Sequence record: PZ445447.1
Source: a phage
Direction: 5' to 3' (one strand)
Length of the DNA: 64,000 nucleotides
The notes under the pieces were generated by a model that made no database searches, was not told the DNA's origin, and saw only the letters and a program-made list of their open reading frames with translations. How positions within the stretch are numbered: position 1 is the first letter of the stretch; every line of letters starts with the position of its first letter. Positions 15,157 to 29,489 of this stretch are shown here, in pieces. The position numbers were made by a program, and so were the translations under genes.

Positions 15157-15179
15157 TATTTTAAGTTATCAGATTGCCA

Positions 15180-15660
15180 GAGATCAGGAGGATTTCTAAA
15201 ATGGATTTCCTCCTTTTGATATTTTACCTACCAGGATATTTTAAAATCCTTAGAAAATCAGAAAATGGATCGAAAACTAAAATGGATTTTTCAGAGCAGG
15301 CACGACGAGATGAACCACTCATCCTATCGTCTGCACCATATTCCAGACCACCATTACAGATTTCCCGCACATGCTCACATCCTTCTACTAGAACTTCCCC
15401 CACTTACCCTTGACCTTTTATAGTAATAATCCAACCACTACCTTGAAGTTGTGGCGCAGCTTTCCAAGTACTCGATCTGTTTTTCGTTTCAAAGATTGAA
15501 TTTTCTGAAAATTTTTCTCGATAAATTTCTCAGTACTCGATCTGTTTTTCGTTTTCTGAATCGGATTTTCTGGAAATCGTTCCGGCTCTCGACCTGAAAT
15601 TTTTGGGGACGAAATCGATTTTTCGTTTTCAGAAATGGATTTTTAAAATTTCTATATGGG
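15180..15660. repeat. non-coding direct-repeat tract (iteron-like)
   Basis: GTACTCGATCTGTTTTTCGTTT at 15468 and 15534 plus degenerate copies; four or five AATGGATTTT-type repeats. Confidence 0.6.
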
Positions 15661-15757
15661 AATATTTTAGTGGATACTATTTTATAGGAAATTGTTACGG
15701 AGGGTAATTAGCGTGCTAATTAAATTTATTAAATGCGAGGAGTTCTCATTTAGAATT

Positions 15758-15776
15758 TTGAATGATAATCATTCTC
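15758..15776 (+). promoter_or_regulatory. Fur-box-like operator (copy A)
   Basis: TTGAATGATAATCATTCTC matches Fur consensus GATAATGATAATCATTATC at 15 of 19 (ATGATAATCATT core exact). Confidence 0.5.
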
Positions 15777-15790
15777 GTTTGCAGAATAAC

Positions 15791-15832
15791 GGGCAGGCCC
15801 GGTGATTGTCTCCCGGCCCCTACTGCCCCGGC
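15791..15832. repeat. GC-rich imperfect palindrome element (copy 1 of 3)
   Basis: GGGCAGGCCCGGTGATTGTCTCCCGGCCCC...; related copies at 15926-15970 and inverted at 25152-25199. Confidence 0.55.
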
Positions 15833-15893
15833 TTGTTATTATAGTAACACACAGGACAAAGAAAGCAAGAAGTTTTTGCATAAATTTTTAGAC

Positions 15894-15912
15894 GATAATG
15901 ATAATCGTTCTC
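15894..15912 (+). promoter_or_regulatory. Fur-box-like operator (copy B)
   Basis: GATAATGATAATCGTTCTC matches Fur consensus at 17 of 19. Confidence 0.55.
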
Positions 15913-15925
15913 ATTTCATGCAGCG

Positions 15926-15970
15926 CCCATCCCCGGTGGTTGTCTCCCCCGTCACCGGTGCCTGCCGTCC
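15926..15970. repeat. GC-rich imperfect palindrome element (copy 2 of 3)
   Basis: CCCCGGTGGTTGTCTCCCCCGTCACCGGTGCCTGCCG. Confidence 0.5.
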
Positions 15971-16176
15971 TTTCGATAGGTATATTTTGCCACCTGGCGG
16001 GGCCGCTGTCAACACTTTTCAAAAAAAAAAAAATTTCTAACCTGATGCGCTGACCGCTGCAACCTGGCGGGGCCAGCCTGGCAGGGCCTAACTGACCAGG
16101 TAGGAGAGAATGAAGGCTTGCAAACCTGGTGGGCCTATGCTATAGGATAGGTAACAATTGAAGAGGAGGTACAAAA

Positions 16177-16353
16177 ATGGAAGGTAATATGATCCCCCTG
16201 GAAAATGTAGCTATTAATGACGCTGAGGCTATCGCCCTGGTTGAAAAGGCTATGGCGGGAGCGTTGGAACATAAAGAAGAGTACGAAAAAATGGTGGTTA
16301 ACCTGGCAGGGGCGGCGGCTGGAGAATTCTACCCAAAAAATAATTTTAACTAA
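16177..16353 (+). CDS. hypothetical small protein (58 aa)
   Basis: Not in ORF track (under 60 aa); ATG 7 nt after GAGGAGG RBS; clean 58-codon frame. Confidence 0.5.
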   Translation: MEGNMIPLENVAINDAEAIALVEKAMAGALEHKEEYEKMVVNLAGAAAGEFYPKNNFN

Positions 16354-17657: not shown

Positions 17658-17777
17658 ATGAGCACTGCACGCCAACACACAAAGGTAACGATTATCGTTT
17701 GCATCATTGGTTACATCCTGGCGCAAATGTTGATGGGTAGCGCCAATGATTTCGCAAAATTTTTCTTAGACTTTTAA
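17658..17777 (+). CDS. hypothetical small membrane peptide (39 aa)
   Basis: AAAGGAGG RBS 7 nt upstream; hydrophobic core VTIIVCIIGYILAQMLMG; not in ORF track. Confidence 0.45.
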   Translation: MSTARQHTKVTIIVCIIGYILAQMLMGSANDFAKFFLDF

Positions 17778-24751: not shown

Positions 24752-24900
24752 CCGTGAAAAAGATAATCATTACCTTGGGGATTGTGGCGGGATCGCTGGC
24801 GCTCTTTCCCCTTATGGTTAGATATGTGCTGATCAGTATTGTCCTGGTGGTCAGTGATCTACTAGAAACGGTTGGCACCTTGTTTTAAAGAGCGATAAAA

Positions 24901-25092: not shown

Positions 25093-25151
25093 TCCTTATT
25101 AACTAGAAAACAGGGCTTGCAATGGTCCTGTTTTTTGTTATACTTATTACA

Positions 25152-25199
25152 CGGCAGGCACCTGGCGACGGGGGGAGACAATCACCGGGCCTGCCTGTC
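25152..25199. repeat. GC-rich imperfect palindrome element (copy 3, inverted)
   Basis: ACGGCAGGCACCTGGCGACGGGGGGAGACAATCACCGGGCCTGCCTGT; reverse complement matches the elements at 15791 and 15926. Confidence 0.55.
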
Positions 25200-25220
25200 A
25201 TATAAGAACTATAAAAACCG

Positions 25221-25249
25221 TTGACATCTGCCAGGTGGTGGGGTAACAT
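25221..25249 (+). promoter_or_regulatory. sigma70-type promoter
   Basis: TTGACA, 17 nt spacer, TAACAT; followed by hairpin GGGCAAAAGTGCCC. Confidence 0.55.
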
Positions 25250-25303: not shown

Positions 25304-25576
25304 ATGTCAAGCTGGATTAATCAAGAAGTCGAATCACGTTTTAATGCTATTTGGGATCTCATCGAAAAAGAGGACGGAACATCAAGCCCTTATCTCAATA
25401 ATCTTGAATTCCATTTCGTGGAAGCGATGAACGCAGAACATGATCACGAAGGTGGTGCGGATGAGTTCGCTAAAGGGTATGGCTTCAACAATGCCAACGA
25501 AATGATCGAGGCGGTTGTACTCCAGGCTGAGGAAGATTATCAATTAAAAACGCTTGAATTCTGCCGCCGTAAGTAA
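25304..25576 (+). CDS. hypothetical protein
   Basis: AGAAGAGAGGAAAACATTATG leader; 90 aa. Confidence 0.6.
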   Translation: MSSWINQEVESRFNAIWDLIEKEDGTSSPYLNNLEFHFVEAMNAEHDHEGGADEFAKGYGFNNANEMIEAVVLQAEEDYQLKTLEFCRRK

Positions 25577-26341: not shown

Positions 26342-26761
26342 ATGAACATTAAATCTAATAATCCGGCATATAGCTTTGATAACGCTTTTTGTCACGGTCC
26401 GGCGGCGAAAGGATTCGAAATCGATGGTAAACTAATTATTGTCAATGTTGACGGGGAAGAGGTTGCAGTATATCCGGTGGCAGACGTTAAAAGCCGTCTA
26501 CAATGCCGCATGGATGTTACCGCCTATCAGCTTGATCCGGTCCGCATAGTTGCCCTGGTCCTGGAAGAAGAAATTAAAGCCATGCACCATAGCAACAGAT
26601 TTATTGGTGACGCGCAGGATAATATGAAAGTATGCCGCCATAAAGTTAATGAAGTGCTTAAAGAGTACGGCTATAAAGATCTTATGATCAAACGCGAGGA
26701 AAAATTCCGCTACCGTAACGACCTGGCAAATCGGATTTTTGAAATATACGAATCATTATAA
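26342..26761 (+). CDS. hypothetical protein
   Basis: AAGAGGTAAAAACACCATG; 139 aa; last plus-strand gene before the convergent hub. Confidence 0.6.
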   Translation: MNIKSNNPAYSFDNAFCHGPAAKGFEIDGKLIIVNVDGEEVAVYPVADVKSRLQCRMDVTAYQLDPVRIVALVLEEEIKAMHHSNRFIGDAQDNMKVCRHKVNEVLKEYGYKDLMIKREEKFRYRNDLANRIFEIYESL

Positions 26762-26780
26762 TTTTTTAACTGAATTATCA

Positions 26781-26805
26781 AGGGGCTTAGGCCCCTTTCT
26801 TTTTG
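26781..26805 (+). terminator. rho-independent terminator
   Basis: AGGGGC-TTAG-GCCCCT then TTCTTTTTG. Confidence 0.7.
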
Positions 26806-26806
26806 T

Positions 26807-29273
26807 CTGCTCTTCCCCCTACCATAAACGGCCCTACCTGGCAAGTGGAATAATTGACGAGCCATCAATCCCACACACTGTACAAACATACATATAAAAT
26901 AACTATTGCATAATTTTTCATTGTGTGGTAGCAGGGCCATTTTTACACGTTTTTCCTTCCAAAATTGCACGTAATGCAGCATTTGCACAAAATTTAACCT
27001 GATGCATATATTCAATAGCTTGTCAACAACTAAAAATCTTTATAAGTCATACACTTACATAACTACAAAAGCGTTTTCTACGTGAAAAATCGAGTATAAC
27101 TATAGCCGCCAGATCTCAGAATTTACGTACGCTCGCCATTCTATAGCCTGCTAAGCATTTATTCCAACCATAGAATAACGGAATAGTCAATACCTGCATA
27201 AAATAATTATTCGTGTAAACTGCATAACATAAATCGGCCCAGGTGTCAACATTTTTCGTAAACAGTCTGGAATTGTCACGTTAGGTTACCATAAGCAGAG
27301 AAATCTTCAGTCGTCTAATGTTTACTGTACGTTACTATATTAACTGAAATCATTAGATGACTAATAGAAAGATAAGAAATAATTAACAATACAATTATTT
27401 TATCTGTAACAATAAGGCAACTATGCAAACGAATGGCATGGCGCGACGGAGTCGCGACATAATATAAAAGCAGTAACCATCACCCCCGTGATAGTTTGTC
27501 TGCAAACTATTAATCAGATCATAGTTGCCTTGTATTTAGTTAATCATGACATAACAAGCAAGGCAACTATAGATCTGCTAATAGTTGCCCTGCTTTTATA
27601 TTATGTCATGCTAATTATAATCAGTGCGATTATTGTCATGTATAATTATTGTCATGCAAACGAATGGCATGGCTGATTATCGGTGTGTAAACAGTCAATC
27701 ATGTAAATGGTTAGCATGTGAACAATCAGGAATGTAAACAATCCAGTGTGTAAACTAATAGGTGTGTAAAAGTGTCATGTTGTGTCAGTTAGGTCACATT
27801 ATGTCAGACAAGTTTTTCTCCTCTTTGTCAAGTGCTGCATGAAAAATTTACAAGCTTGTATGGTAGCATTTTTGCGGCCCTGTTTACATTCAGGAGTGTA
27901 TGTATAATCCTTGGTGTGTGGGCGTTTAGACGTCTGGACGGTAAGAAGTCTGCAGGTTAATATCTAATCTATCGGCTGCTAACTATATCCCACACAAATA
28001 GTAAGAAATATAATTGTTATGTGCGTAAACAGTAACCCATGTTATCAATCCCTGTATGTATCGCCAGTGGTGCGCATAATGGGTATTATGTTAAATTGCC
28101 CGTAATGATAAAGGTTCTCACAATGATAGGTATTCTCATTCACCCTCACAAAATAGATTGCAAATGTTGTGCCACTGTGTGAACGGCCTCACCTATTAAT
28201 TTGCCTCACTGCCTCGATATTTGAGAATTATTATAAGAATGAGAAGTATTCCCATTTCGTCCGCCTGGCAGCACTCCAGTCGCTACGGCTCATGACAGGG
28301 CAGCACTCCTGTAGGTCAGGTCAAAATCGTGGTAGAATTGGGCCTGTTCAGATATTTCTGGCTGACTCTTCAGGTCTGTGTGGGAAAAGCCAACCTCTCC
28401 GGCGGGGCAGGGGGTCATGACGGGAAAATTGCAGGTCAATTAAAAAATTTACGTGGTGTATGAAGCGCTCTTCAGGTAAGGCAGGTATTAGAGGATGAAA
28501 CCCTCTTCAGGCAATGATATTTGTGGGTGTGATATTTGCTGGAAAGCCAGATATGACGGGACTCCCGGCGGGGATGGGGTAGTACAGACAGGGAAAATAT
28601 GGGGATGTAGTTGGGTAAATTGATCAGGCAGGTAGAGTATGGATTATGTTACAGGTATGTTAAATATGGAGGTTGAATATCTGTAAGATTTGTGTGTAAA
28701 ATCAAAGACTTAAGTGGTGTTGTGGTATTTTCTATAAATAATTCAAGTTTAATAGGTAATATTTGTCTCTATCCACTTTGTGTGGTAAACAGATTCAGAT
28801 GAAATTGGTTTACAAGTGTATACATAATATACAAATTAAAGATACAAGAAACCCCCCTCCCCTTCGGCTACCATTCACCTTTTCCTCTGACTGGTACTTA
28901 AACACTTATTCAGACTCTTCAGGTTATCACCCATATATCATATGGCAGTGACTGGTGTCCTCCGGCCCCTCTTTCGTCACCCGTCCGCTTCGCCATGCTA
29001 ATGCCATAGCCAATGGTTCGGTTGTTCACCCTGTTCACTCAGGTGTATCTCCATACCCCTTCAAACCGAAGAGAACAGAAAACCCGAATTACTCGGTAAA
29101 AGAAAAGAGAAGAACTTAATTTTATCAAGATAGGCAAGAATGTCAAGGCATGACTGCTCACTAAACAAGCAAACAGTCATGTGTGGGAGGTAAGTGATTG
29201 TGGTTGTAGGAAATTTAGTTGAAAGATGTGTTATAGGTGCTTCCAGCACTTTAGCCGGGTAGCTAATTGTGTG
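26807..29273. other. large non-coding, repeat-rich region between convergent gene blocks (candidate origin, packaging or regulatory hub)
   Basis: No ORF with credible RBS; AT-rich; inverted repeats around 27425-27610 (ATAGTTGCC in alternating orientation); five TGTAAA(C) repeats 27680-27770; CTCTTCAGG four times 28366-28930. Confidence 0.5.
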
Positions 29274-29489
29274 TCAGTCCAGCGGTTCATCCTCTACTTC
29301 ACTGAAATCAATGTTCATGGTCTCTTCCCAACCATCGATCTCAGCACAAGAGTGGAGTTCTTTAGGGTTTACTCCCAAAGCCTCAGCAACAGAGTCTATA
29401 TTTAACACCTCTGGCAGGTATGATTCATCGAATTCAAGGTAAATCAGGCCACGAGTGTTGTCAGCTCCACCAAATATCTCTATCTTCAT
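29274..29489 (-). CDS. hypothetical small acidic protein
   Basis: GAGGAG RBS; starts MKIEIFGG like several array members; 71 aa. Confidence 0.55.
   Translation of the reverse strand: MKIEIFGGADNTRGLIYLEFDESYLPEVLNIDSVAEALGVNPKELHSCAEIDGWEETMNIDFSEVEDEPLD

Follow-up and report, generated by a model that had tools for sequence, protein, structure and literature searches.

Candidate host Fur operators and leftward promoter-leader modules in conserved non-coding DNA of an rV5-like coliphage

Introduction

Textbook Fur boxes belong to bacterial iron genes and, in some cases, to the cargo genes of prophages. Here we describe two tandem Fur boxes in about 1 kb of non-coding DNA (positions 15157-16176) of a virulent phage, within a 64,000-nucleotide stretch of the sequence record PZ445447.1 that we call the window. 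Judged by their sequence, the two 19-mers are very likely Fur-type operators used by host Fur, and each is followed by a GC-rich element that is likely the 5' leader of a leftward promoter. In Escherichia phage MaxBurger (Bas54, MZ501093.1; Vequintavirinae, Vequintavirus) the region has a 100% identical counterpart. This virulent, rV5-like phage has E. coli as host and a genome of 136,346 bp; subtracting 66024 from a position in MZ501093.1 gives the position in the window. Blocks of small rightward genes flank the locus on both sides, with a cluster of helicase, primase and polymerase genes upstream. Phages of the rV5 type are widely used as broad-host-range therapeutic and biocontrol agents, and if host Fur binds these sites, such phages would behave differently in the iron-poor gut, infected tissue and serum than in rich laboratory medium.

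Comparison with described systems

The E. coli Fur operators of fhuA, fecI, fepA-fes, fepB-entC and cirA have the 19-bp consensus and its 7-1-7 logic in common with the phage boxes, and the right half AAT/C-CATTCTC of fhuA (CTTTATAATAATCATTCTC) and fecI (TGTAATGATAACCATTCTC) is found in the phage boxes as well. Extended host operators and the phage sites alike carry extra adjacent half-sites. Unlike the E. coli operators, the phage boxes are in non-coding DNA of a virulent phage with no iron gene near them, they score higher than any operator that we tested, and they are located about 50-75 nt downstream of a conserved promoter rather than over it.

RyhB in E. coli and PrrF in Pseudomonas are Fur-repressed small RNAs. 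Going by general knowledge of these RNAs, the phage locus resembles them in having a Fur box by a short, structured, GC-rich non-coding sequence with a conserved single-stranded stretch, but the phage element has no sequence or Rfam similarity to them, and the promoter and strand evidence given below argues against a promoter overlapped by Fur. Another set of comparisons is with ompA-type 5' stabilisers and the put antiterminator RNAs of HK022, which are 5'-terminal stem-loop or promoter-proximal RNA elements. Again from general knowledge, these are similar in that a stem is located a few nucleotides from the predicted 5' end, directly past a sigma-70 promoter, with more than one such promoter per genome; there is no known sequence relationship, however, and the folding of the phage leader is not exceptional.

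Among phage-borne genes, stx1 is temperate-phage cargo with a Fur box. The sitABCD genes on lambdoid phages are likewise Fur-box-controlled cargo (PMC6969025). In both cases phage-borne DNA is wired into the host Fur regulon, as we propose for MaxBurger, but at sitABCD and stx1 the box acts on a gene for a cargo protein from which the lysogen profits, whereas the MaxBurger boxes are in a virulent phage's own non-coding control region. In the literature we found no report of Fur boxes as conserved regulatory DNA of virulent phages and no paper linking Fur to rV5-like phages, the sole co-occurrence being sitABCD on lambdoid phages, and the rV5 genome paper mentions neither iron nor the repeats of this region.

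The closest parallel in a virulent coliphage is the injection-stop (iss) region, or Repeat Region 3, of T5, which is also long, conserved, untranslated and rich in repeats (bioRxiv 10.1101/866236). T5-like phages, as in chee24 (NC_047885.1, 8053-11453 reverse complement; about 1775-1950 and 2264-2330), have a perfect AAATGAGAATCATTCTCATTT with GAGAAT and a GC hairpin after it. Beside paired DnaA boxes and seven 'tgtcggattYgcaca' repeats they also have about six degenerate boxes that resemble Fur sites. All of this is within the injection-stop region, which is untranslated, where the terminal repeat has its inner end. The T5 locus differs from ours in its location in a terminal repeat and in its paired DnaA boxes, of which MaxBurger has none, and there is no homology outside of the palindrome. 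Davison (bioRxiv 10.1101/866236) lists the T5 iss sequences as palindromes and repeats, with no mention of Fur. The palindrome in this region would make Fur a new candidate host factor for a decades-old problem.

Quality of the Fur boxes

The features at the two boxes are as follows.

15758-15780, no strand: Fur box 1, comprising a 19-mer at 15758-15776 and a palindromic 20-mer AATGATAATCATTCTCGTTT at 15761-15780; 15/19 to the consensus, 16.9-17.1 bits
15782-15787, no strand: CAGAAT, a hexamer resembling an extra Fur half-site, which is also readable as the putative -10 of a rightward promoter
15894-15916, no strand: Fur box 2 (GATAATGATAATCGTTCTCATTT); 17/19 to the consensus, 19.8-19.9 bits

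The original prediction placed two 19-mers, TTGAATGATAATCATTCTC at 15758-15776 and GATAATGATAATCGTTCTC at 15894-15912, and counted 15 and 17 of 19 matches to the Fur consensus GATAATGATAATCATTATC; both the positions and the counts are correct. For comparison, the best sites in nine classical E. coli K-12 promoter regions (fepA-fes, fepD-entS, fepB-entC, fhuA, fecA, fecI, cirA, tonB and fur) match the same consensus at 12-16 of 19 positions. We built a Fur matrix from these nine regions, as had been suggested, and the phage boxes scored 19.8 bits (box 2) and 16.9 bits (box 1), above the 7.9-15.3 bits obtained by the true operators when each was left out of the matrix in turn. Across 1000 dinucleotide shuffles of the local AT-rich region, best scores were 8.5 at the median, 12.4 at the 95th percentile and 18.2 at most, so both boxes exceed the 95th percentile as well as all nine host operators. 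They are the top matches to the matrix in the window and also in the whole 136-kb genome, and both have the 7-1-7 inverted repeat at the level of authentic operators.

Consensus matches with at most three mismatches number three in the window, where 0.01 are expected from dinucleotide shuffles; box 1, with four mismatches, falls outside of that search. The third of these (24756-24774, 14.8 bits) is inside a small hydrophobic open reading frame (ORF), where it codes for KKIIIT, and a further matrix match (17684-17702, 15.7 bits) codes for VTIIVC inside another one. These two are probably coding coincidences arising from isoleucine codons and not operators. Boxes 1 and 2 are both contained in a tandem duplication of 134-136 nt, which means that they are not independent and should be counted as one invention that was then duplicated.

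The hexamer CAGAAT forms an ATTCT-N7-AGAAT inverted repeat with box 1, and the equivalent in T5-like phages is ATTCTCAtttGAGAAT. Its counterparts across lineages are CTGAAT, GAGAAT, CGGAAT, CTAAAT and CAAAAC, in which position 2 varies and only GAAT is kept. On this pattern CAGAAT reads better as an additional Fur half-site than as a -10.

The same sequence in bacteria and in other phages

As a test that does not depend on the consensus, we took one genome of each bacterial species and looked in it for the 20-mer of box 1, as the exact class AATGAKAATCATTCTCRTTT. Contigs with this 20-mer number at least 120 and belong to Pseudomonadota, Bacillota, Cyanobacteriota, Chloroflexota and Actinomycetota. 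Around these sites alone we collected the ORFs whose start is no more than 350 nt away in either direction, 127 in all, and scanned them against Pfam. The commonest families were FUR (9), TonB-receptor Plug (8), FeoB (7) and FbpA-type iron-binding proteins (7), followed by Cupredoxin_1 (6), Peripla_BP_2 siderophore-binding proteins (4), ZnuA (3) and IucA/IucC (2). These families are the Fur regulon, and the sequence class of box 1 is tied in bacteria to iron-acquisition genes or to fur itself. MaxBurger encodes no Fur homologue that we could find (best E-value 0.14), so the binding protein would have to be host Fur. Among the phage's own genes are those for iron-dependent ribonucleotide reductases of class I and class III.

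The exact palindrome is also present in at least 120 viral contigs in IMG/VR, mostly unrelated to rV5, where it often follows 9-13 nt after a consensus TTGACA-17/18-TAAAAT/TATAAT promoter. Counting promoters with at least 10 of 12 consensus positions that end 9-39 nt before the palindrome, we found them in 26/118 contexts in IMG/VR contigs unrelated to rV5, compared to 10/342 random positions. This recurring layout in unrelated phages supports the idea of promoters that fire into Fur boxes. The palindrome sometimes occurs in tandem arrays; one context (L082) has three copies with a 30-nt spacing. For two uncultivated phage families that carry the palindrome, a search for phage relatives in GenBank found none.

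Conservation of the region

Among 12 Vequintavirus genomes, the 520-bp non-coding core (15500-16020) has 95-100% identity, while the genes on either side reach roughly 70-90%. Over 15760-15780 (box 1) and over 15940-15960 (leader 2) the identity is 1.00, and box 2 has one variable column. The sole poorly conserved spot in the core is a run of 13 A at 16030-16043, the length of which differs among these genomes. We also searched IMG/VR for further Vequintavirus loci through a neighbouring protein and found only two.

Beyond the genus, sensitive blastn finds about 90 nt, consisting of box 1 and the start of the GC-rich element, at 78-88% identity in Seunavirus, Certrevirus, Mydovirus, Phapecoctavirus and one Aeromonas phage, while the DNA around this module no longer aligns. 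The module is thus kept in at least five further phage genera, and the control region of about 15500-16020 is conserved across the whole rV5-like supergroup. In each relative the module is in a non-coding gap of about 1 kb which holds three iteron-like repeats of about 70 nt, then palindromes, then the GC-rich element. The palindromes, which have the form AAATGA(G/T)AATCATTCTCATTT, number from one to four in a relative, with a spacing of about 28-29 bp. Judging from these alignments, the Fur boxes are under strong purifying selection; sites of top quality, under such selection and in a non-coding region, make a link to host Fur and iron very plausible.

The repeats of the window are in the same arrangement.

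15458-15643, leftward of the Fur boxes: three iteron-like AT-rich direct repeats of 65-74 nt each (repeat family D1)

Identity over 15500-15660 is 96-98% in the 12 Vequintavirus genomes, and equivalent triple repeats were found in phAPEC8, Mydo, CR3 and SSE121. Their position and general form are kept across Vequintavirinae and Phapecoctavirus, and an inverted motif related to them is present near 15240-15300.

The statement in the original prediction that the region has no credible ORF holds up. The annotated ORFs are inconsistent between records and their frames differ between genera; bas54_0100 to bas54_0102 and the minus-strand ORFs have stops or frameshifts in relatives and show no third-position bias. 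As an example, bas54_0102 is intact in only 2 of the 12 genomes, and its variable columns are spread evenly over the codon positions. Since these ORFs fail both the conservation and the codon-position test, we rejected a protein-coding explanation of the region, and a small peptide in the leader was rejected as well because its frame is not conserved and CR3 has no AUG.

Predicted leftward promoters and probable GC-rich leaders

A GC-rich element follows about 15 nt after each Fur box, and a third copy is present in inverted orientation elsewhere in the window, both as originally described. The core CCGGTG(A/G)TTGTCTCCC occurs three times in the window (at 15799, at 15933 and inverted at 25173-25188) compared to 0.32 expected, and these are also the only three copies in the whole genome. 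The features around the elements are as follows.

15781-15834, minus strand: leader 1 (GC-rich element 1), core GGTGATTGTCTC at 15801-15812; predicted leftward start near 15834
15791-15796 with 15823-15828, minus strand: stem of leader 1, GGGCAG / CTGCCC
15841-15868, minus strand: leftward promoter 1, TTGCTT (15868-15863), 16-nt spacer, TACTAT (15846-15841), read by eye
15917-15977, minus strand: leader 2 (GC-rich element 2), core GGTGGTTGTCTC at 15935-15946; predicted leftward start near 15977
15984-16012, minus strand: leftward promoter 2, TTGACA-17-CAAAAT with TG ahead of the -10; 10/12 in a standard scanner, shuffle p value (p_shuf) 0.00
25104-25137, plus strand: intrinsic terminator hairpin of the preceding operon, overlapping the -35 of the promoter of copy 3
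25117-25144, plus strand: promoter of copy 3, TTGCAA-16-TATACT with TG, in the same direction as the genes
25151-25203, plus strand: leader 3, the inverted third copy of the GC-rich element, core at 25175-25186, with no Fur box after it

Of 18 distinct copies of the GC-rich element, at least 15 have a minus-strand sigma-70-type promoter to their right, and its distance from the element is constant. The spacer has a constant length and a variable sequence, and p_shuf is 0.07 or lower in 11 of the 18. In relatives these promoters include TTGCAA-17-TATATT (CR3 and Mydo), TTGACC-17-GATAAT, TTGACT-17-CATAAT and TTGACG-17-CATAAT, and several were also called by the standard scanner. Counted from the predicted leftward starts, the Fur operators are at about +47 to +75. 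The third copy in the window has an equivalent promoter and leader, here along the plus strand with the genes, and an extra copy in a Mydo-like contig is arranged in the same way. Because these copies have no Fur box, the promoter with its leader and the Fur box appear to be separable modules that are joined at this locus. Beyond leader 3 there is a second promoter (25221-25249) and then a gene at 25304.

RNAalifold on 17 aligned leaders keeps only a 6-bp outer stem, AURGCG/CGYYAU, which is 90% paired, versus 26-60% when the partner is slid, and in which one pair goes from A-U to G-C through G·U. Read in the minus orientation, the cells of this stem comprise 71 Watson-Crick pairs, 19 G·U pairs and 10 mismatches, while in the plus orientation there are 71 Watson-Crick pairs, 5 G·U pairs and 24 mismatches. 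This wobble pattern favours an RNA in the minus orientation. Besides the stem, blocks of primary sequence are conserved (ACGG, GAGACAAWCACC and CCUGCCYGU). One common inner hairpin across genera is not supported, given that the stem positions differ.

Several other identities for the GC-rich element were considered. It is not an intrinsic terminator, since there is no T-run after the elements on either strand and the standard scanner reports no terminator there, the only true terminator being the separate hairpin at 25104-25137. With three copies in 136 kb and no blastn match in 5,426 E. coli genomes, it is not a REP-like or other dispersed repeat of the host, and the same absence of matches led us to reject capture from the host. 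Rfam searches gave nothing credible, either with gathering thresholds over the whole window or in E-value mode over the region and three relatives, where the best hit was a Moco riboswitch at 15 bits (E 2.1), and no tRNA or transfer-messenger RNA was found.

In Mydo-, Certre-, Seuna- and Phapecoctavirus we noted a second GC-rich block (CTACCGGCGATCCACCTTCC...GTTAGCCCCGCCTTTTCGCCGTGGGGTGGCG) that has its own leftward promoter and is strongly conserved (L003 1690-1760, L004 1650-1730, L005 1650-1730 and L002 1700-1770). It has no Rfam match and is not in the MaxBurger window; in Vequintavirus the duplicated unit 2 stands in its place. The gap in Mydovirus and Seunavirus also holds a conserved leftward gene of about 61 amino acids with its own promoter (Mydo gp055, L003 1826-2011, with an equivalent in L005), which indicates that leftward transcription units exist in this region in these relatives.

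The leftward promoters and the conserved leader are unannotated in all of the records examined, and they would define a new non-coding transcription unit.

Proposed mechanism

We propose that the locus is built of modules that read, from right to left, as a minus-strand sigma-70-type promoter, a leader, an array of Fur operators, and then AT-rich DNA with iterons. The first ~50 nt of the transcript would be the GC-rich leader, closed by a short stem and carrying the near-invariant GAGACAAWCACC, and the Fur operator would follow directly past it. MaxBurger would have two such modules in tandem, in addition to the third promoter-plus-leader (25117-25203) along the genes. In an iron-replete host, Fe2+-Fur on the operators would block or attenuate leftward non-coding transcription into the iteron-bearing DNA; when iron is scarce, or when Fur is soaked up by replicating phage DNA, leftward transcription would pass. 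What the sequences show is the quality and conservation of the sites, the bacterial context of the 20-mer, the position of the promoters and the strand asymmetry of the stem; Fur occupancy of the sites, its effect as a roadblock and a role for the leftward transcript are what we infer here. The arrangement suggests that the phage senses the iron status of its host during infection.

Several observations weigh against this proposal. Classical Fur operators overlap -35 to +20 of the promoter, and the phage operators are further downstream, at +47 to +75 from the leftward starts; the boxes overlap only a weak and poorly conserved rightward promoter. To our knowledge, repression by Fur as a roadblock is not an established mode. 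Leftward promoter 1 has a weak -35 (TTGCTT) that was read by eye; the standard scanner missed it because this -35 matches at only 3/6 positions, and the top pick of our script was CTTTCT-16-TATAAT, with a p_shuf of 0.44. Mydovirus (by scan) and Seunavirus (by eye) have a further leftward promoter just past the boxes, so in these genera Fur may act from upstream, and the wiring may not be identical in all genera. The leftward transcript has no recognisable product, terminator or target, with no ORF and no Rfam family. Folding of the leaders is ordinary (z from -2.9 to +0.6), and a thermodynamic test of strand was uninformative since the energies show no strand preference. The search for covariation across related phages, which had been suggested as a check, gave a modest signal in the outer stem only, and 13 of 500 shuffles reach the observed score. 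Finally, much of the conservation is in primary sequence, so the conserved element could be a DNA site rather than an RNA.

Taking all of this together, host Fur operators with a leftward leader transcript gated by Fe-Fur are the best explanation that we have, and as a whole it could as easily fail as hold. Taken by itself, the gating of the leftward transcript by Fur is a tentative proposal, with the balance leaning somewhat against it. We would put forward with similar reserve, as a speculation, that rV5-like, T5-like and many uncultivated virulent phages build a host Fur operator into their own early or non-coding control DNA, with iron as a general checkpoint of the lytic cycle. That in rV5-like phages such a checkpoint would gate a conserved, leader-bearing non-coding transcript without a described family is conjectural to the same degree.

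Alternative explanations

The original prediction had iron-responsive control of a non-coding RNA or of the downstream 58-amino-acid gene at 16177. Worked out as a model, Fur would repress a rightward promoter, TTGAAT-18-CAGAAT, the spacer of which is the Fur box, and iron starvation would release a small RNA with a GC hairpin as an analogue of RyhB or PrrF. The Fur-type operators in non-coding DNA were borne out, and the rightward targets were not. A Fur box over the -35 and spacer is the classical geometry of repression, and in most lineages the promoter-proximal box keeps TTGAAT at its left edge, but the promoter scores no better than shuffles, it was picked as the best in only 2 of 18 copies, and its -10 varies at position 2. 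Since the leader's closing stem takes in the final bases of CAGAAT, it could not form in an RNA that starts 7 nt downstream of this hexamer, and the G·U asymmetry of 19 vs 5 favours the other strand. Read in the element orientation, the third copy is followed by a hairpin and UUUUCU that could end an RNA of ~95 nt, and it folds slightly better that way (-27.0 vs -24.0 kcal/mol); however, in that orientation it lacks both a Fur box and a convincing promoter (0+5), and units 1 and 2 have no terminator after them. Given these points and the absence of an Rfam match, we rejected a gene for a small RNA of the RyhB or PrrF type, and rightward control of any such RNA is unlikely. As for the 58-amino-acid gene, by eye a promoter-like site of its own is present about 200 nt rightward of box 2, and this site carries no Fur box.

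Replicating phage DNA might instead act as a decoy that sequesters host Fur, derepressing iron uptake for the phage ribonucleotide reductases without any regulation in cis. That the phage sites outscore all nine host operators tested is what one would expect of a decoy, as are the arrays of 2-4 boxes at ~28-29 bp in relatives and the cluster of about six in T5-like phages, and the phage encodes class I and class III reductases with no regulated gene evident. Fur is present at thousands of copies per cell, however, and MaxBurger has only two strong sites per genome; from general knowledge, the few hundred sites present late in infection would titrate only a fraction of it. Nor would a decoy account for the direct junction of the box, in every case, with a leader and promoter, and we regard this reading as improbable.

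An architectural role is doubtful, in which the iterons would form a replication origin, a packaging site or a site that controls DNA entry, Fur would be recruited there as a host DNA-binding factor into a nucleoprotein complex, and leftward transcription would activate or prime this complex, with the repeats and DnaA boxes of the T5 injection-stop region as a parallel. The three iteron-like repeats that adjoin the boxes are kept across genera, the region is the most conserved non-coding DNA here, T5-like phages place clusters of Fur-like boxes beside DnaA boxes and repeats in the untranslated iss region, and the replication origin of rV5 is undefined. Of the features expected of an origin, however, only the iterons and AT-rich DNA (22-35% GC) are present: the MaxBurger region lacks DnaA boxes and has no excess of GATC, we identified no initiator gene beside it, and the GC skew turns at ~30 kb with the flip in gene orientation instead of at the Fur-box locus. 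We rejected GC skew as a marker of the origin since it tracks gene orientation only.

A phage-encoded repressor that shares the specificity of Fur and shuts off promoters on a timer unrelated to iron is very improbable: the palindrome 9-13 nt past a consensus promoter in many uncultivated phage contigs is in the typical place of a phage repressor operator, but MaxBurger has no Fur homologue, and since unrelated phage families (rV5-like, T5-like and others) use the same 20-mer, as do the Fur regulons of bacteria across phyla, a single ubiquitous host protein explains this more economically.

Other observations

A motif ACCTGGCGGGGCC and its variants occur at 15992, 16062, 16076, 16125, 16301, 22709, 23197 and 59993, often as the spacer of TTGACA or TTGCAA promoters. 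In the non-coding region the Dcm site CCWGG has a density of 5.9 per kb, while the figure for the window is 2.0 per kb; a Dcm-like methyltransferase (bas54_0074) is among the phage's gene products.

Sixteen GenBank records labelled 'Campylobacter phage' (MG0656xx, host C. jejuni) are 96-99% identical to this coliphage region, and their host label looks doubtful.

A further stretch of 2.5 kb without an annotated gene is found at 26761-29274, where the rightward and leftward gene blocks converge, close to the change of sign in GC skew. Within it, at 28104-28145 and 28222-28262, are two degenerate tandem Fur-like sites that are 116 nt apart, each with 2/16 mismatches to AATGAnAATnATTnTCATT.

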